DNA of 64,000 nt from Escherichia coli (GTDB lineage Bacteria > Pseudomonadota > Gammaproteobacteria > Enterobacterales > Enterobacteriaceae): assembly GCF_044324785.1 (NCBI RefSeq), contig NZ_CP172127.1; one strand, written 5' to 3'. Below are positions 39,931 to 47,956 of the stretch, piece by piece. Positions within the stretch are counted from its first letter, which is position 1. The number at the start of each line of letters is the position of its first letter. A program made the translations under genes and the position numbers. The notes under the pieces were generated by a model, which saw nothing but the letters and a program-made list of their open reading frames with translations, was not told the origin of the DNA and did no database searches.

Positions 39931-42483
39931 TCAGAACAATTCCTGTGCCTCGCCATTATCGATAATGGTCGTTCCCACCTCGTGCACCGCCTGTTGTGTC
40001 GGCTGCGTACCTTCGATGAAATACTCTTCGCGGCTGTTGCCACCATTAGCTAACTGCCCGGTGCTGCGATCGATATTCACCGTCACAATACCCGGCGGCG
40101 GCGTCAGCGGCTGCTCCGGCACACCTTCAAGAACGGCTTTCATATAAGCGTCCCATGCAGGCTGGGCACTCTTGGCACCGCCTTCGTAACCTGAGATCTG
40201 ATCTTTAATCGCTCCGGAAGCCGTTGTATGACCGAGATTACGACGGTGATCATCAAAGCCAATCCAGACCGAGGTCACAACGCCCGGACCGTAACCCGAA
40301 AACCACGCATCTTTCGAACTGTTAGTGGTACCGGTTTTCCCGCCGATATCGCGACGCTGCAAATCACGACCTGCACGCCAGCCAGTACCCTGCCAGCCTG
40401 GCTCACCAAAGATATTGGTGTTCAAAGCACTCTTAATCAGGAATGCCAGCGGAGTGTTGATGACGTGCGGCGCGTACTCCTGTGCGCCAGTCTTCGCCAC
40501 TAACGCCTGATTTGCCTGCTCCAGCTGCGGCATTGGTACAGAAACATTCTGCTGCTCGCGGGAGATAGCGACATCTTCAACATCGTTATTTTCCAGCACG
40601 TTCGATTTCTGCGTATCACCGTAAATCACCGGAATATCGCATTCCGGGCAGGCTACTTTCGGTTTCGCTTCGAAAATCACGCCGCCCTGATCGTTTTCAA
40701 TTTTGCTGATAAACCACGGGTCCACCAGGAAGCCGCCGTTCGCCATGACCGCGTAGCCGCGCGCCACCTGCATTGGGGTGAAGGACGCTGAACCCAGCGC
40801 CAGCGATTCGGTGTGGACAATGTTTTGCGCCGGGAAGCCGAAGCGTTGCAGATATTCTGCAGCGTAGTCGACGCCCATCGCCCGCATTGCGCGTACCATC
40901 ACCACGTTTTTCGACTGGCCCAGTCCCTGACGTAAGCGAATTGGACCGGCATACTGCGGTGGTGAGTTCTTCGGCTGCCAGTCAGAACCGGCACCTGCAT
41001 CCCAGCGGGAAATTGGCACATCGTTCAACATACTTGCCAGTGTCAGACCTTTATCCATCGCCGCGGTGTAGAGGAACGGTTTGATGTTGGAACCTACCTG
41101 ACGCAGTGCCTGGGTGGCGCGGTTAAACTTGCTCTGATTGAAATCAAAGCCACCGACCAGCGCCATAACGGCACCGTTTTGCGGATTGATCGACACCAGC
41201 GCCGAGTTCACTTCCGGCACTTGCGCCAGCCACCATGCATCGCCAACCTGACGAACCCAGATTTGCTGACCCGTTTGCAGAACATCGGTCACTTTACGCG
41301 GCGTCGGTCCCTGCTGAGTATCCGAACGGTAAGGACGCGCCCAGCGAACGCCTTCCATACTCAATACGACGGTCGACCCGTCCGCCAGCATCGCCGTCGC
41401 TTCCTGAGGATTGGCGCTGGTGACTGCGGCAGGCAGCAGCGGACCATAGGTCGGCAGCGCCTTCAACGTATCGGTAATCTTGTTGTTATCCCACGCCGAC
41501 TCGCCCACTTTCCACAGCACATTTGCCGGGCCGCGATAGCCGTGGCGCATGTCGTAGTCCAGCACGTTATTACGTACTGCCTGCTGTGCGGCCTGCTGTA
41601 CTTTGCGGGTGATGGTGGTGTAAATGCGATAACCGTCTTCATAGGCACTTTCGCCATAACGGTTATACATCTCCTGGCGCACCATTTCGCTCAGGTACGG
41701 CGCAGAGAAAGCAATCTCCGGCGCGTGATAGTTAGCGTTAATCGCCTCAGTGCGTGTCTGATCGAACTGTTGTTGGGTGATATACCCTTCATCCAGCATC
41801 CGCGACAGCACGACGTTACGCCGCGCGACGGCACGATCCATCGAGTAGAGCGGGTTGAAGGTGGAAGGCGCTTTCGGCAGCCCGGCTATCACCGCCATTT
41901 CGTTCAGCGTCAGTTGGTCGACCGTTTTACCGAAATAGACTTGTGCCGCAGCACCGACACCATAGGCGCGGTAACCGAGGTAAATCTTGTTCAGATAAAG
42001 CTCGAGGATCTCGTCTTTCGTCAGCAACTGTTCAATGCGAATCGCGAGGAAGACTTCCTTAATCTTACGCATCAGCGTGCGTTCTGGACTGAGGAAGAAG
42101 TTTCTCGCCAGCTGCTGGGTAATGGTACTCGCCCCTTGTGACGCGTGGCCGGAGAACAGCGCCACACTTGCCGCACGGAAGATCCCCACCGGGTCAACGC
42201 CGTGATGCTCGTAGAAGCGGCTGTCTTCCGTCGCGATAAAGGCTTTCACCATCTCCGGCGGGATTTGATCCAACGTAACCGGAATACGACGTTTCTCACC
42301 GTATTGAGCGATCAGCTCGCCATCGGCGCTGTAAATCTGCATCGGAATTTGCAGGCGAACATCTTTTAATGTCGCCACATCCGGCAGTTGTGGCTCGATG
42401 TAGCGGTATAGGCCATAAATCGAGCCTGCTCCCAGCAGAATGCAACAGACTGCAAGGATCAAAAAATACTTTACGAACTTCAC
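39931..42483 (-). CDS. mrcA: penicillin-binding protein 1A (bifunctional transglycosylase/transpeptidase)
   Basis: PBP1a sequence with SxxK (SNIKP) and KTGT motifs; start placed at the GTG giving MKFVKYFLILAVC (850 aa, the form I recall); an upstream ATG at 42507 would add 8 codons. Confidence 0.92.
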   Translation of the reverse strand: MKFVKYFLILAVCCILLGAGSIYGLYRYIEPQLPDVATLKDVRLQIPMQIYSADGELIAQYGEKRRIPVTLDQIPPEMVKAFIATEDSRFYEHHGVDPVGIFRAASVALFSGHASQGASTITQQLARNFFLSPERTLMRKIKEVFLAIRIEQLLTKDEILELYLNKIYLGYRAYGVGAAAQVYFGKTVDQLTLNEMAVIAGLPKAPSTFNPLYSMDRAVARRNVVLSRMLDEGYITQQQFDQTRTEAINANYHAPEIAFSAPYLSEMVRQEMYNRYGESAYEDGYRIYTTITRKVQQAAQQAVRNNVLDYDMRHGYRGPANVLWKVGESAWDNNKITDTLKALPTYGPLLPAAVTSANPQEATAMLADGSTVVLSMEGVRWARPYRSDTQQGPTPRKVTDVLQTGQQIWVRQVGDAWWLAQVPEVNSALVSINPQNGAVMALVGGFDFNQSKFNRATQALRQVGSNIKPFLYTAAMDKGLTLASMLNDVPISRWDAGAGSDWQPKNSPPQYAGPIRLRQGLGQSKNVVMVRAMRAMGVDYAAEYLQRFGFPAQNIVHTESLALGSASFTPMQVARGYAVMANGGFLVDPWFISKIENDQGGVIFEAKPKVACPECDIPVIYGDTQKSNVLENNDVEDVAISREQQNVSVPMPQLEQANQALVAKTGAQEYAPHVINTPLAFLIKSALNTNIFGEPGWQGTGWRAGRDLQRRDIGGKTGTTNSSKDAWFSGYGPGVVTSVWIGFDDHRRNLGHTTASGAIKDQISGYEGGAKSAQPAWDAYMKAVLEGVPEQPLTPPPGIVTVNIDRSTGQLANGGNSREEYFIEGTQPTQQAVHEVGTTIIDNGEAQELF

Positions 42484-42602
42484 TGGAAATTTCCCATTTA
42501 GTTTCATTTGGGCAGTTTATAAACAAACGCGCGGTAGTATAAAGGCAAGCCAGACGCATTGATATACCCGTCAGAGTGACGGGTGATAAGGAGATCATCA
42601 CA

Positions 42603-43382
42603 ATGGCATTTAAGATCTGGCAAATTGGTTTGCATTTACAACAGCAAGAAGCGGTAGCGGTTGCTATCGTGCGGGGCACAAAAGAATGCTTTTTGCAACG
42701 CTGGTGGCGGTTGCCGCTGGAGAACGACATAATCAAAGATGGGCGGGTTGTCGATGCACAGCGGCTGGCTAACACGTTGTTACCGTGGAGTCGCGAACTG
42801 CCGCAGCGTCATCACATTATGTTGGCATTTCCCGCCAGTCGCACATTACAGCGGTCATTTCCACGCCCGTCGATGTCCCTTGGTGAGCGGGAGCAAACGG
42901 CCTGGCTGTCCGGGACGATGGCCCGCGAGCTGGATATGGATCCGGACTCCCTGCGCTTCGATTACAGCGAAGACTCACTCAGTCCCGCCTATAACGTGAC
43001 TGCCGCGCAAAGCAAAGAGCTGGCAACGCTGCTTACTCTGGCAGAAAGGTTGCGTGTTCATGTTAGCGCGATCACCCCGGATGCCAGTGCATTACAGCGA
43101 TTCCTGCCTTTTTTACCTTCTCATCAGCAATGTCTGGCCTGGCGTGATAACGAACAGTGGCTGTGGGCGACGCGCTATAGCTGGGGGCGCAAACTGGCGG
43201 TGGGGATGACTAGCGCGAAGGAGCTGGCGGCAGCGTTATGCGTTGATCCCGAAAGCGTCGCGCTATGTGGCGAAGGCGGATTTGACCCCTGGGAGGCGGT
43301 TTCTGTTCGTCAGCCGCCGCTACCGCCGCCAGGTGGAGACTTTGCCATCGCGCTGGGGCTGGCGCTTGGGAAGGTGTACTGA
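42603..43382 (+). CDS. hofM: PilM-like type IV pilus / DNA-uptake assembly protein HofM
   Basis: Start set at MAFKIWQIGLHLQQQE (259 aa); first gene of the hofMNOPQ cluster. Confidence 0.88.
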   Translation: MAFKIWQIGLHLQQQEAVAVAIVRGTKECFLQRWWRLPLENDIIKDGRVVDAQRLANTLLPWSRELPQRHHIMLAFPASRTLQRSFPRPSMSLGEREQTAWLSGTMARELDMDPDSLRFDYSEDSLSPAYNVTAAQSKELATLLTLAERLRVHVSAITPDASALQRFLPFLPSHQQCLAWRDNEQWLWATRYSWGRKLAVGMTSAKELAAALCVDPESVALCGEGGFDPWEAVSVRQPPLPPPGGDFAIALGLALGKVY

Positions 43383-43921
43383 TGAACCCGCCAATTAATT
43401 TTTTGCCTTGGCGACAGCAACGCCGGACCGCTTTTCTTCGTTTCTGGTTACTGATGTTCGTTGCGCCTCTGCTGCTGGCCGTCGGGATAACGCTAATACT
43501 GCGTCTGACAAGCAACGCCGAAGCACGCGTAGACACTGTTTTGCTTCAGGCGGAACAACAACTCGCCCGCAGCTTACAGATAACGAAACCACGTTTGCTG
43601 GAGCGCCAACAAATTCGTGAGCAGCGTTTGCAAAGGCAGCGCCAGCGACAATTTACCCGCGACTGGCAATCTGCGCTGGAAGCACTGGCGGCGCTTTTAC
43701 CCGAGCACGCCTGGCTGACAACGATAAGCTGGCAGCAGGGAACGCTGGAGATCAAGGGGCTGACAACAAGCATTACCGCGTTAAACGCGCTGGAAACGTC
43801 ACTCCGCCAGGATGCTTTTTTTCATCTCAATCAGCGGGGGGCCACGCAGCAGGATGCGCAGGGACGCTGGCAATTTGAGTATCAGTTAACAAGGAAGGTT
43901 AGCGATGGACATGCTCTTTGA
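43382..43921 (+). CDS. hofN: PilN-like protein HofN
   Basis: 179-aa ORF whose ATG overlaps the hofM stop (TGATG); single N-terminal TM segment. Confidence 0.88.
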   Translation: MNPPINFLPWRQQRRTAFLRFWLLMFVAPLLLAVGITLILRLTSNAEARVDTVLLQAEQQLARSLQITKPRLLERQQIREQRLQRQRQRQFTRDWQSALEALAALLPEHAWLTTISWQQGTLEIKGLTTSITALNALETSLRQDAFFHLNQRGATQQDAQGRWQFEYQLTRKVSDGHAL

Positions 43922-44345
43922 CTGGTGGTTCGCCGCATCACCCCGCCTCCGCCAGCTTTGCTGGGCATTCTGGTTGATGATGTTAGTTACGCTCATTTTT
44001 CTGTCATCGACACACCAGGGAGAGAGCGACGCATTAATTCGACTACGGGCGAGTCATCACCAGCAGTGGGCCGCACTGTATCGCCTGGTAGACACCACTC
44101 CCTTCAGCGAAGAAAAAACGCTGCCCTTTTCGCCACTGGATTTTCAGTTATCCGGCGCGCAACTGGTTTACTGGCATCCATCCGCGCAGGGAGGTGAGTT
44201 GGCGTTGAAAACGCTGTGGGAAGCAGTGCCGTCGGCATTTACACGGCTGGCAGAGCGCAACGTCAGCGTGAGCCGTTTTTCGTTAAGCGTGGAAGGTGAT
44301 GACCTTTTGTTCACGCTACAACTGGAGACGCCGCATGAGGGTTAA
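43905..44345 (+). CDS. hofO: PilO-like protein HofO
   Basis: 146-aa ORF MDMLFDWWFAASPRLRQL...; overlaps hofN by 17 nt. Confidence 0.88.
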   Translation: MDMLFDWWFAASPRLRQLCWAFWLMMLVTLIFLSSTHQGESDALIRLRASHHQQWAALYRLVDTTPFSEEKTLPFSPLDFQLSGAQLVYWHPSAQGGELALKTLWEAVPSAFTRLAERNVSVSRFSLSVEGDDLLFTLQLETPHEG

Positions 44346-44739
44346 ACGCTGGTTGTTGGCAGGTATTGCATTGTGCCTTTTAACCGGTATGCGTGACCCT
44401 TTTAAACCGCCGGAAGATCTATGCCGGATTAGCGAACTTAGCCAGTGGCGCTATCAGGGGATGGTAGGGCGAGGCGAGCGCATCATCGGTGTAATAAAAG
44501 ACGGGCAAAAAAAATGGCGACGGGTGCAGCAAAACGATGTGCTGGAAAACGGCTGGACGATCTTACAGCTGACGCCAGACGCACTAACGCTGGGAACCGG
44601 GACAAACTGCGAACCGCCACACTGGTTGTGGCAACGGCAAGGAGATACAAATGAAGCAATGGATAGCAGCACTACTGTTGATGCTGATACCCGGCGTACA
44701 GGCGGCAAAGCCGCAAAAAGTGACACTGATGGTGGATGA
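44335..44739 (+). CDS. hofP: PilP-like lipoprotein HofP
   Basis: Start set at MRVKRWLLAGIALCLLTGM (lipobox-like LLTGMRD), 134 aa; overlaps hofO by 11 nt. Confidence 0.85.
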   Translation: MRVKRWLLAGIALCLLTGMRDPFKPPEDLCRISELSQWRYQGMVGRGERIIGVIKDGQKKWRRVQQNDVLENGWTILQLTPDALTLGTGTNCEPPHWLWQRQGDTNEAMDSSTTVDADTRRTGGKAAKSDTDGG

Positions 44740-45889
44740 CGTTCCGGTAGCTCAGGTGTTGCAGGCGCTGGCTGAACAGGAGAAGTTGAACCTGGTGGTG
44801 TCGCCAGACGTCAGCGGTACGGTGTCGTTACATCTAACAGATGTTCCCTGGAAGCAAGCACTACAAACTGTAGTGAAAAGCGCCGGACTGATAACGCGTC
44901 AGGAGGGCAACATTCTCTCGGTGCATTCCGTTGCCTGGCAGAATGACAATATCGCCCGTCAGGAGGCGGAGCAGGCGCGGGCGCAGGCAAATCTGCCGCT
45001 GGAAAATCGCAGTATAACCCTGCAATACGCCGACGCGGGAGAACTGGCGAAAGCCGGGGAGAAGCTACTGAGTGCCAAAGGGAGTATGACCGTCGATAAA
45101 CGCACCAATCGCCTTTTGCTGCGAGATAACAAAACGGCGTTAAGCGCGCTTGAACAGTGGGTAGCGCAAATGGATCTGCCGGTCGGGCAGGTTGAGCTGT
45201 TGGCGCATATTGTCACCATTAATGAAAAAAGTTTGCGTGAGTTAGGCGTGAAATGGACGTTGGCTGATGCGCAACAAGCTGGTGGCGTTGGGCAAGTCAC
45301 CACGCTTGGCAGCGACCTCTCCGTAGCGACGGCGACAACGCATGTCGGTTTTAACATTGGACGCATCAACGGACGTTTACTGGATCTTGAGCTTTCCGCG
45401 CTCGAACAAAAACAGCAGCTGGATATTATCGCCAGTCCGCGTCTGCTGGCCTCTCATCTTCAGCCTGCCAGCATTAAACAGGGGAGCGAAATTCCATATC
45501 AGGTTTCCAGCGGGGAAAGTGGCGCGACGTCGGTGGAATTTAAAGAGGCCGTCCTGGGGATGGAGGTCACGCCCACGGTGTTACAAAAAGGTCGCATCCG
45601 GCTGAAATTACACATCAGCCAGAACGTTCCGGGGCAGGTGCTACAGCAGGCCGATGGCGAAGTGCTGGCGATTGATAAGCAGGAGATCGAAACGCAGGTC
45701 GAGGTCAAAAGCGGAGAAACGTTGGCGCTGGGTGGCATTTTTACCCGTAAAAATAAATCGGGGCAGGATAGCGTACCGTTGCTTGGCGACATTCCCTGGT
45801 TCGGGCAATTATTTCGTCATGACGGAAAAGAAGATGAACGACGCGAGTTAGTGGTGTTTATCACGCCACGACTGGTTTCCAGTGAGTAA
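44651..45889 (+). CDS. hofQ: secretin HofQ (PilQ/ComE-type outer membrane DNA-uptake channel)
   Basis: 412-aa ORF with signal peptide and secretin C-domain; overlaps hofP by 89 nt. Confidence 0.92.
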   Translation: MKQWIAALLLMLIPGVQAAKPQKVTLMVDDVPVAQVLQALAEQEKLNLVVSPDVSGTVSLHLTDVPWKQALQTVVKSAGLITRQEGNILSVHSVAWQNDNIARQEAEQARAQANLPLENRSITLQYADAGELAKAGEKLLSAKGSMTVDKRTNRLLLRDNKTALSALEQWVAQMDLPVGQVELLAHIVTINEKSLRELGVKWTLADAQQAGGVGQVTTLGSDLSVATATTHVGFNIGRINGRLLDLELSALEQKQQLDIIASPRLLASHLQPASIKQGSEIPYQVSSGESGATSVEFKEAVLGMEVTPTVLQKGRIRLKLHISQNVPGQVLQQADGEVLAIDKQEIETQVEVKSGETLALGGIFTRKNKSGQDSVPLLGDIPWFGQLFRHDGKEDERRELVVFITPRLVSSE

Positions 45890-46289
45890 ACAGCCGTAAA
45901 AGCGGTAATGTTTTTACGCTGAACGTGTTTCATCTATTTGACGCGCGCAGGTATTTAGCATACAAGGAGTACCGATTTGAGAGTTGGTGCTCTTCGCTGC
46001 CTGCGTTCCATGATGATGATTTATCATTCAGGCGGCATTTTGCTGTCTTTTTTACGCTAATCTTACCCGGTGATTTATCGCCAGAGCGGTGGTAGCAAGG
46101 CAGCGCGCTTGCAGCGACCAGATATGCAGGGGGATGGGTGATTTATTCAGTTGCCAAACCCGCTGGAGTATTGAGATAATTTTCAGTCTGACTCTCGCAA
46201 TATCTTATGAGGTTTCAGTTCATGTCCTGCGGCGCTCTCTGAGCGAAGCGGGTTTATCATTAACGAATAGTCTTAGTAGTACCGAAAAA

Positions 46290-46811
46290 ATGGCAGAGAA
46301 ACGCAATATCTTTCTGGTTGGGCCTATGGGTGCCGGAAAAAGCACTATTGGGCGCCAGTTAGCTCAACAACTCAATATGGAATTTTACGATTCCGATCAA
46401 GAGATTGAGAAACGAACCGGAGCTGATGTGGGCTGGGTTTTCGATTTAGAAGGCGAAGAAGGCTTCCGCGATCGCGAAGAAAAGGTCATCAATGAGTTGA
46501 CCGAGAAACAGGGTATTGTGCTGGCTACTGGCGGCGGCTCTGTGAAATCCCGCGAAACGCGTAACCGTCTTTCCGCACGTGGCGTTGTCGTTTATCTTGA
46601 AACGACCATCGAAAAGCAACTTGCACGCACGCAGCGTGATAAAAAACGCCCGTTGCTGCACGTTGAAACACCGCCGCGTGAAGTTCTGGAAGCGTTGGCC
46701 AATGAACGCAATCCGCTGTATGAAGAGATTGCCGACGTGACCATTCGTACTGATGATCAAAGCGCTAAAGTGGTCGCAAACCAGATTATTCACATGCTGG
46801 AAAGCAACTAA
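46290..46811 (+). CDS. aroK: shikimate kinase I
   Basis: Start set at [25 protein letters not shown] (P-loop), 173 aa; the ORF track extends 67 codons upstream through the promoter region. Confidence 0.95.
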
Positions 46812-46867
46812 TTCTGGCTTTATATACACTCGTCTGCGGGTACAGTAATTAAGGTGGATGTCGCGTT

Positions 46868-47956
46868 ATGGAGAGGATTGTCGTTACTCTCGGGGAACGT
46901 AGTTACCCAATTACCATCGCATCTGGTTTGTTTAATGAACCAGCTTCATTCTTACCGCTGAAATCGGGCGAGCAGGTCATGTTGGTCACCAACGAAACCC
47001 TGGCTCCTCTGTATCTCGATAAGGTCCGCGGCGTACTTGAACAGGCGGGTGTTAACGTCGATAGCGTTATCCTCCCTGACGGCGAGCAGTATAAAAGCCT
47101 GGCTGTACTCGATACCGTCTTTACGGCGTTGTTACAAAAGCCGCATGGTCGCGATACTACGCTGGTGGCGCTTGGCGGCGGCGTAGTGGGCGATCTGACC
47201 GGCTTTGCGGCGGCGAGTTATCAGCGCGGTGTACGTTTCATTCAAGTCCCGACGACGTTGCTGTCGCAGGTCGATTCCTCCGTTGGCGGCAAAACTGCGG
47301 TCAACCATCCCCTCGGTAAAAACATGATTGGCGCGTTCTACCAGCCTGCTTCAGTGGTGGTGGATCTCGACTGTCTGAAAACGCTTCCCCCGCGTGAGTT
47401 AGCGTCGGGGCTGGCAGAAGTCATCAAATACGGCATTATTCTTGACGGTGCGTTTTTCAACTGGCTGGAAGAGAATCTGGATGCGTTGTTGCGTCTGGAC
47501 GGTCCGGCAATGGCGTACTGTATTCGCCGTTGTTGTGAACTGAAGGCAGAAGTTGTCGCCGCCGACGAGCGCGAAACCGGGTTACGTGCTTTACTGAATC
47601 TGGGACACACCTTTGGTCATGCCATTGAAGCTGAAATGGGGTATGGCAATTGGTTACACGGTGAATCGGTCGCTGCGGGTATGGTGATGGCGGCGCGGAC
47701 GTCGGAACGTCTCGGGCAGTTTAGTTCTGCCGAAACGCAGCGTATTATAACCCTGCTCACGCGGGCTGGGTTACCGGTCAATGGGCCGCGCGAAATGTCT
47801 GCGCAGGCGTATTTACCGCATATGCTGCGTGACAAGAAAGTCCTTGCGGGAGAGATGCGCTTAATTCTTCCGTTGGCAATTGGTAAGAGTGAAGTTCGCA
47901 GCGGCGTTTCGCACGAGCTTGTTCTTAACGCCATTGCCGATTGTCAATCAGCGTAA
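46868..47956 (+). CDS. aroB: 3-dehydroquinate synthase
   Basis: 362-aa [25 protein letters not shown]...; matches my memory of AroB. Confidence 0.96.

Follow-up and report, generated by a model that had tools for sequence, protein, structure and literature searches.

The closest described relatives of the hofMNOPQ cluster of Escherichia coli are the pilMNOPQ genes of Pseudomonas aeruginosa, Myxococcus and Thermus, which encode the alignment subcomplex of the type IVa pilus together with its secretin and share the same five-gene order, and the comABCDE operon of Haemophilus influenzae. The latter has been described as an orthologous operon that is controlled by Sxy and CRP acting at CRP-S sites, with ComE, like E. 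coli HofQ, being the DNA-uptake secretin, and two CRP-S sites were predicted in E. coli as against one in H. influenzae (PMC1635313). Unlike the uptake associated with H. influenzae comABCDE, natural DNA uptake in E. coli is very low (PMC3330819). Previous studies showed that the promoter of yrfD (hofM), which has the two predicted CRP-S sites, binds CRP weakly (Cameron & Redfield 2006, PMC1635313), that Sxy induces yrfD 16-fold in a CRP-dependent manner (PMC1635313), and that the hof genes are not expressed in the laboratory (PMC1635313, PMC3330819). In E. coli, DNA uptake and transformation that depend on Sxy were nevertheless detected, and both were abolished in a hofQ::kan mutant (Sinha & Redfield 2012, PMC3330819). 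In addition, a hofQ deletion in uropathogenic E. coli leads to a kidney-colonisation defect (PMC2649431), and PpdD pili have been made with a tac-driven type IV pilus assembly plasmid that includes the native hofM-hofQ fragment (bioRxiv 10.1101/856302). Here we analyze this cluster in a stretch of 64,000 nucleotides (nt) from an E. coli genome (contig NZ_CP172127.1), hereafter the window, in which it occupies positions 42603-45889. Our overall reading, to which we assign a probability of about 0.82, is that this is the known E. coli hofMNOPQ operon, that it is under purifying selection, and that the long (89-nt) overlap between its last two genes is passive.

In E. coli K-12, the same locus is known as yrfD-yrfC-yrfB-yrfA-hofQ (b3395-b3391). 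Gene order, lengths, overlaps and flanks (mrcA on one side, aroK-aroB-damX on the other) of a K-12-like genome are all equal to those of the window, and K-12-like strains are about 97.4% identical to it at the nucleotide level, i.e., the window carries an allelic variant only. Annotation or publications already cover the operon itself with its boundaries and overlaps, as well as its control through Sxy/CRP-S and the part it plays in DNA uptake. Beyond three modest additions, which concern the nature of the long overlap, a contrast in constraint within the operon and the lineages in which the genes are disrupted, there is little new. The five genes, as given by the open reading frame (ORF) listing and the sequence, are the following (lengths in amino acids, aa):

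42603-43382, plus strand: hofM (yrfD), 259 aa, ATG start
43382-43921, plus strand: hofN, 179 aa
43905-44345, plus strand: hofO, 146 aa
44335-44739, plus strand: hofP, 134 aa
44651-45889, plus strand: hofQ, 412 aa

No internal stop was found in any of these frames in the window. Consecutive genes overlap by 1 nt (hofM/hofN, in the form TGATG), 17 nt (hofN/hofO), 11 nt (hofO/hofP) and 89 nt (hofP/hofQ). The mrcA gene (39931-42483, minus strand) is divergent from hofM and 119 nt apart from it, and aroK starts at 46290, which is 400 nt past hofQ. Presumably, a ponA(mrcA)-pilMNOPQ-aroK synteny also exists in Pseudomonas. An earlier reading of this DNA from its letters only (the sequence-only reading) had reported five intact overlapping frames lying divergent from mrcA and 5' of aroK. 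The frames and the four overlaps are the same in the ORF listing and in RefSeq, and the flanking coordinates fit the reported arrangement. In the 14 E. coli genomes that were fetched, the boundaries, protein lengths and overlaps given by RefSeq and its Prokaryotic Genome Annotation Pipeline (PGAP) were identical to those of the window. A megablast search with the 3,287-bp stretch detected the cluster in 5,425 of 5,426 complete E. coli genomes, and the M-N-O-P-Q order was kept in all 80 sampled species of Enterobacterales; in the window, the genes follow each other without intergenic gaps.

The 89-nt overlap is passive: hofP runs on through the signal-peptide codons of hofQ, and the shared stretch is neither a selected dual-coding element nor a coupling device. 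The parts involved are:

44335-44637, plus strand: conserved core of hofP, residues 1-101, a signal/anchor helix followed by a PilP-like beta-sandwich
44638-44739, plus strand: C-terminal tail of hofP, residues 102-134, which spans the hofQ Shine-Dalgarno (SD) sequence, ATG and signal-peptide codons
44639-44644, plus strand: hofQ SD sequence AAGGAG, 6 nt 5' of the ATG, duplex -8.5 kcal/mol

That hofQ starts inside hofP, as had been claimed from the letters, was borne out by this SD sequence, by the signal peptide, by a full-length NCBIfam alignment of the product, and by the ATG, which was chosen in 76 of 80 species under a start-calling rule that prefers an ATG near the homologous position. 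The AAGGAG sits in hofP codons R101-Q102-G103-D104, and it is this embedded SD sequence that accounts for the invariant 'RQG' in HofP alignments. At the other end, the hofP stop (TGA, 44737-44739) is the 'T GA' within GAT GAC, the codons for D29-D30 of HofQ, a conserved Asp-Asp pair. A stop in the hofP frame needs a hofQ codon that starts with GA, AA or AG; the signal-peptide core excludes the corresponding residues, and the frame therefore stays open. With no stop before the hofQ ATG, hofP thus continues through the signal-peptide codons and ends at the TGA that lies in the Asp-Asp codons of the first beta-strand of HofQ.

If the overlap were passive, its length should follow from HofQ, and this was what we observed. 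Among the 70 species in which both genes could be called, the overlap took 24 values that ranged from -62 to +140 nt, distributed as follows:

89 nt: 18 species
62 nt: 8 species
86 nt: 6 species
92 nt: 4 species
38 nt: 4 species
80, 59 and 35 nt: 3 species each
98, 71, 4 and -7 nt: 2 species each
140 and 134 nt: 1 species each
-3 to -62 nt: Dickeya, Serratia, Brenneria and Pectobacterium

In 61 of the 63 overlapping loci, the hofP stop is made of a hofQ codon ending in T and a following codon that specifies D, E, N, K, S or R, and in most taxa it falls in VDD/VDE codons. When HofQ residues 1-60 were resampled synonymously with hofQ codon usage, the median overlap was 89 nt, with a probability of 0.44 for exactly 89 nt and of 0.70 for 89 nt or more. 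The HofQ protein sequence thus predicts the overlap, and an open hofP run-on of 29 codons is expected, not improbable. The sequence-only reading had taken the overlaps as a sign of selection. For the longest of them this could not be sustained, as its length is variable, is predicted by HofQ alone, and adds a tail that is unconstrained. That an overlap of such remarkable appearance can be explained as passive signal-peptide run-on calls for caution in reading overlaps as selection.

The properties of the HofP tail point in the same direction. Judged by sequence identity, HofP evolves fast (59-63% identity to its counterparts in Salmonella, Citrobacter and E. fergusonii, against 85-87% for HofQ). 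Past residue ~100, its only conserved residues are RQG..NEAMD.S and the terminal GG*, and in the hofQ frame these correspond to the SD sequence, the ATG, the M-K-Q-W-I codons and the V-D-D of the VTLxVDDVPV strand. We calculated the ratio of nonsynonymous to synonymous nucleotide diversity (piN/piS, Nei-Gojobori) within E. coli from the window and 14 other genomes. Nine sites of the overlap are polymorphic, four of them at hofQ codon position 3 and one at hofP position 3, and eight of the nine are at hofP codon positions 1 or 2; piN/piS was 6.7 when the overlap was read as hofP but 0.16 when it was read as hofQ. Across genera, variability in the overlap is lowest at hofQ position 2, equivalent to hofP position 3. 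In the AlphaFold2 model, the tail had a predicted local distance difference test (pLDDT) score of 48-62 and is predicted to be disordered. It is absent in LSJC7, Mangrovibacter, Serratia, Dickeya and Pectobacterium and is missing or much shorter also in Kosakonia and Phytobacter, with Pectobacteriaceae and Yersiniaceae behaving likewise. The 33-residue tail is thus an appendage that is free of constraint and probably disordered.

The alternative that survives best, which we still consider unlikely, is that all the overlaps, the 89-nt one included, were selected for translational coupling and fixed stoichiometry, so that their presence in itself signals purifying selection. The products of a type IVa pilus machine are expected to form roughly equimolar rings, and the short junctions are conserved: hofM and hofN overlap by 1 or 4 nt in 56 of 73 species, hofO and hofP by 11 nt in 46 of 54, and hofN and hofO by 17 nt in 30 of 54. 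These three are typical compact operon junctions, and translational coupling at them is plausible from the sequence. The TGATG of hofM/hofN fits the geometry of termination-reinitiation, and the 17-nt and 11-nt overlaps are borderline. However, conservation of the short overlaps may reflect conserved terminal residues, and each downstream hof gene has an SD sequence of its own (duplex with the anti-SD of -6.4 to -9.3 kcal/mol; the SD sequence of hofM is AAGGAG). Moreover, the hofP/hofQ overlap is not only highly variable and predictable from HofQ, as described above, but does not occur at all in several lineages in which the operon is retained. Its hofP stop lies 89 nt 3' of the hofQ start, which excludes termination-reinitiation, so that stoichiometric co-translation at this junction is unlikely. 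The proposal in the sequence-only reading that the overlaps enforce co-translation is therefore unlikely to hold at hofP/hofQ and is no more than a hypothesis for the other three junctions.

A further idea, which we regard as doubtful and as somewhat less credible than selected coupling, starts from the tail. HofP may have acquired it as a young overprinted peptide, born when hofP lost its stop in the ancestor of Enterobacteriaceae and Erwiniaceae, and the tail, or the ribosome traffic over the hofQ SD sequence and ATG, might then have been co-opted to tune the HofP:HofQ ratio. If this were true, the rare -1 deletions in the overlap by which HofP becomes joined to HofQ would serve as natural experiments on the ratio of the two proteins.

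Such fusions have been deposited. Public HofP-HofQ fusion ORFs (P0076, 517 aa; P0003; P0043) come from -1 deletions at 44710-44722 (GCCGCAAAAAGTG), and the overlap contains an A5 run (44715-44719) in which a -1 deletion shifts the hofP frame into the hofQ frame. We considered a common HofP-HofQ fusion allele and rejected it: among complete genomes, the -1 alleles occur in one (A4) and in none (C-deletion).

Independent of how the overlaps are interpreted, purifying selection acts on all five hof genes and is long-standing across Enterobacterales. Within-species values were obtained as above (ranges denote two slightly different coordinate sets), and between species the ratio of nonsynonymous to synonymous substitution rates (dN/dS) was pooled over ten close pairs from 80 Enterobacterales loci that were collected via HofQ alignment:

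mrcA: piN/piS 0.029; pooled dN/dS 0.032
aroK: piN/piS 0.022; pooled dN/dS 0.007
aroB: piN/piS 0.093; pooled dN/dS 0.050
hofQ: piN/piS 0.053-0.057; pooled dN/dS 0.076
hofM: piN/piS 0.16; pooled dN/dS 0.173
hofN: piN/piS 0.20-0.22; pooled dN/dS 0.291
hofO: piN/piS 0.28-0.31; pooled dN/dS 0.276
hofP: piN/piS 0.19 (core); pooled dN/dS 0.313

The bootstrap 95% upper limits of piN/piS within E. coli were all 0.45 or lower. The constraint on hofQ matches that on its housekeeping neighbours, whereas hofM, hofN, hofO and hofP are about 3-10 times more relaxed; this contrast within one operon, between a housekeeping-like secretin and its more loosely held alignment proteins, is the second of the additions mentioned above. 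Continued purifying selection, which had been asserted for the cluster, is thus correct in that all five genes are well below 1, but it is uneven and is not implied by the overlaps. A relaxed signature, which had been named as evidence against it, is seen in hofM, hofN, hofO and hofP relative to hofQ and the flanking genes, yet these four genes remain far below neutrality.

It was also noted that the synonymous diversity (piS) of the hof genes within E. coli is 0.09-0.14 (hofP excepted, 0.05), compared with 0.015 for aroK and 0.033 for aroB. The hof allele of the window is rare: only one of the 5,426 genomes, strain N3, is at least 99% identical to it, and the rest are at 95-99%. The mrcA allele of the window, in turn, is found at 99% identity or higher in 401 genomes. 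The high synonymous diversity and the rare allele might stem from low codon bias or recombination.

Rather improbable, in our judgment, is the view that the hof cluster is a cryptic remnant drifting to pseudogenisation, with its intactness in the window being incidental. The absence of laboratory expression (PMC1635313, PMC3330819) and the elevated dN/dS of hofM, hofN, hofO and hofP would fit this view, as would the occurrence of disrupted genes elsewhere. Length anomalies were found in hof genes of 5 out of 40 evenly spaced genomes, versus none out of 60 genomes sampled in the same way for mrcA (Fisher p = 0.009), and one or other of four specific hof lesions was present in at least 322 of the 5,426 genomes (5.9%). 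The O157:H7-type hofM has a 1-base deletion in a G4 run (43355-43358) and was present in 288 of 5,426 genomes by an exact-allele query. It changes the conserved HofM C-terminus from ...ALGLALGKVY to ...ALGWRLGRRTDEPAN, resulting in a protein of 264 aa whose gene reaches further into hofN, and PGAP labels it as a pseudogene. Another site of this kind is located in hofN:

43836-43841, plus strand: G6 homopolymer in hofN, intact in the window, a recurrent frameshift site elsewhere

In K-12-like strains, hofN reads GGGGAG at this position, which interrupts the run. Across the 5,426 genomes, the exact G6 tract is present in 2,340, G7 (+1) in 27 and G5 (-1) in 6, and both G5 and G7 truncate HofN. 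Many of the G7 genomes share coordinates across laboratories and hosts, which argues for an inherited clonal mutation. Strain N3, the nearest relative of the window, carries the G5 allele, annotated as 'frameshifted'; because its aroB is frameshifted too, this hofN frameshift is plausibly an assembly error. A phase-variable switch at the G6 tract was considered as well and was rejected, as +/-1 variants account for only 33 of the ~2,373 G6-bearing genomes and are mostly one clone.

Two further disruptions were of a different type. In E. coli CNR20180903, which has a 4.28-Mb genome, hofQ is cut after ~18 codons by a rearrangement and joined to a truncated barA, and aroK, aroB and damX are no longer adjacent to the hof locus (locus 7085-7195). 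In E. albertii NBRC 107761, there are in-frame stops at hofO codon ~70 and hofP codon 34, and hofM, hofN and hofQ are intact, which suggests that this strain lost alignment proteins. The observation that the frames are intact and full length thus holds for the window but is not general, and the 322 or more genomes with lesions indicate that the hof cluster is dispensable in some lineages. These disrupted lineages (O157:H7-type, the hofN G7 clone and the E. albertii type strain) bear on how uniform 'cryptic competence' is across Escherichia, which is the third addition. A literature search on hof pseudogenes or the hofP/hofQ overlap returned nothing relevant. Against decay of the cluster as a whole, however, all five genes have a dN/dS far below 1, in E. 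coli as well as over ten independent species pairs, the cluster is retained by 5,425 of 5,426 genomes and by every one of the 80 Enterobacterales species sampled, hofQ is under the same degree of constraint as mrcA and aroB, and the induced operon was functional in experiments (PMC3330819). The description of the system as 'cryptic' in the laboratory, which the sequence-only reading shared, is in itself established, with function appearing upon induction (PMC1635313, PMC3330819).

The least probable alternative, which we consider very unlikely, is that the HofP tail is functional (e.g., contacts HofQ, peptidoglycan or DNA) and that both frames are constrained: the Pfam HofP model does cover the whole 134 aa, HofP length is similar across three genera and a terminal GG is common, but the conserved residues of the tail are the SD sequence, the ATG, the first codons and the V-D-D of hofQ in the other frame, variability is lowest at hofP position 3 with a hofP-frame piN/piS of 6.7, and the tail has low pLDDT and in several lineages is either lacking or strongly shortened.

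Several points weigh against our reading of the overlap and of the operon and should be considered together. The starts in distant species were called heuristically and single overlap values may err; however, stop positions are unambiguous, so that the spread of overlaps is robust. Ratios of the dN/dS type are intrinsically biased in overlapping frames, and those given for the overlap within E. coli come from only nine polymorphic sites. Between genera, pN/pS in the overlap was 0.82 versus 1.16, a weak contrast between frames that is saturated and carries little weight; the weakness is explained by the signal peptide and the HofP tail both being loosely constrained. In Escherichia, Salmonella and Citrobacter, HofP is 133-137 aa long in total, and on sequence grounds a function of the tail is possible. 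With regard to regulation, a search for CRP-S sites (TGCGA-N6-TCGCA with up to 2 mismatches) detected no site near hofM in the window. The best CRP-S-like candidates, at 42338-42353 and 42419-42434, match the core in 7 of 10 positions; they are no more than candidates for the published CRP-S sites.

These candidates lie near the ends of the promoter fragment that was used in the published electrophoretic mobility shift assay (EMSA), which could be located in the sequence by its primers:

42327-42452, plus strand: published yrfD/hofM promoter EMSA fragment (primers of PMC1635313)

The fragment is inside the 5' coding region of mrcA, on the opposite strand, at codons about 11-52, and consequently a hofM transcript starting there would run antisense to the 5' end of mrcA. 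According to the literature, the operon is transcriptionally silent in laboratory culture, and Sxy together with CRP activates it from a promoter located partly within the mrcA 5' coding region. An Rfam scan of 42000-46900 (E of 1 or lower) yielded only a non-significant 26-nt fragment of asponA (anti-ponA RNA) at 42329-42354, with an E value of 0.39 and 14.7 bits (gathering score 113).

The products were next compared with known protein families. The assignment of the five genes as PilM-, PilN-, PilO-, PilP- and PilQ-like, made in the sequence-only reading, was supported by Pfam and NCBIfam matches and, for HofM and HofP, by the PilM and PilP folds. HofQ aligned with NCBIfam NF007851 over residues 1-412 of 412 (854.4 bits, cutoff 598) and matched the PilQ model TIGR02515 (446.1 bits, cutoff 284), whereas the GspD model gave 192.8 bits, which is below its cutoff of 351. 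The Pfam domains STN (N0), Secretin_N and Secretin were each above cutoff, and a signal peptide is present at the N-terminus. These matches identify HofQ as a predicted outer-membrane secretin of the PilQ subfamily. With 412 aa, it is without the long AMIN-type N-terminal extension of the 650-730-aa secretins among its relatives.

HofN matched Pfam PilN (PF05137) with 40.5 bits (cutoff 22.8). Its N-terminus, MNPPINFLPWRQQRR, contains INFLPWR, which we take to resemble the INLLP-type motif for PilM binding. HofO belongs to a HofO-specific Pfam family (PF25319, 89.1 bits, cutoff 27) and occupies the PilO position, and no direct match was found between it and the Pfam PilO model. HofP matched Pfam HofP (PF10748) with 259.9 bits over all 134 aa. 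As HofM is weak in Pfam (a sub-threshold T2SSL match only, and no match to the Pfam PilM model) and HofP has no formal Pfam link to PilP, both were tested by structure, using AlphaFold2 models built on alignments of 61 HofM and 58 HofP orthologues.

The HofM model had a pLDDT of 92.9 and a predicted template modelling score (pTM) of 0.90. Its best match in the PDB (Foldseek) was P. aeruginosa PilM, 5eoy, with an E value of 5.7e-13. The PilM matches 5eoy and 5eou had E values of about 1e-12 and template modelling scores (TMq) of 0.69-0.74, Thermus thermophilus PilM (2ych) was also detected, and cytoplasmic GspL (4pht, 1yf5) and FtsA ranked lower. The model identifies HofM as a PilM-like, presumably cytoplasmic, actin-fold protein of a short form: it is ~95 aa shorter than P. 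aeruginosa PilM and is nearer in size to cytoplasmic GspL. The HofP core had pLDDT above 90 over residues about 31-100 and matched PilP structures from Myxococcus, Neisseria and Pseudomonas, namely 3jc8_Pa (5.6e-5), 2ivw (1e-4), 2lc4 and 2y4x/2y4y, as well as the GspC HR domain in 3oss_C and 6hcg_e. Sequence identity in these fold matches of HofM and HofP was 9-19%. HofP differs from PilP in lacking the lipobox Cys. In the window, its N-terminus (MRVKRWLLAGIALCLLTGMRDPF) has no [LVI][ASTVI][GAS]C lipobox; this motif occurred in 3 of 70 HofP orthologues, which is chance-like, and Cys14 is not a conserved residue. The designation of hofP as a lipoprotein gene therefore finds no support in the sequence.

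Some of these resemblances extend to type II secretion, in which the GspC HR domain, cytoplasmic GspL and GspD resemble the HofP core, HofM and HofQ, respectively. Unlike in type II secretion, however, the best family scores of hofQ are PilQ/HofQ, and the gene order and partners are those of a type IV pilus. It is possible to outline how the products may work together. The hofMNOPQ (yrfDCBA-hofQ) operon encodes two parts of the machine for PpdD type IV pili and DNA uptake, namely the alignment subcomplex of the inner membrane and periplasm and the secretin of the outer membrane. By homology, HofM, as a cytoplasmic protein with the PilM-type actin fold, would dock on the N-terminus of HofN; HofN and HofO would be bitopic membrane proteins, with HofN in the inner membrane; and HofP, as a periplasmic PilP-type beta-sandwich, would contact the N0 domain of the HofQ secretin.

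The 3' end of the operon was scanned by consensus, which yielded the following sites:

45893-45916, plus strand: weak terminator-like hairpin with T-run, directly 3' of the hofQ stop (consensus scan only)
46030-46058, plus strand: second weak terminator-like hairpin (consensus scan only)
46151-46180: sigma-70-like site 5' of aroK (consensus match only)

Terminator- and promoter-like consensus sites were at least as frequent in shuffled sequence. The hofQ-aroK spacer (45880-46065) folds into several hairpins, the two terminator-like ones among them, at -64.4 kcal/mol, which is far more stable than shuffled controls (z = -4.2), and it had no match to an Rfam family.

Two additional observations concern the neighbourhood and the relatives of the operon. 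The mrcA frame is open for 8 codons 5' of its annotated GTG start (42483), up to an ATG at 42507 (42484-42507), and the SD sequence of the annotated start is weak (-4.2 kcal/mol). E. fergusonii is a close relative of E. coli by species, yet its hof proteins are distant: its HofP and HofQ are 63% and 86% identical to those of the window, which is no closer than Salmonella or Citrobacter, whereas E. albertii HofQ is 97% identical.

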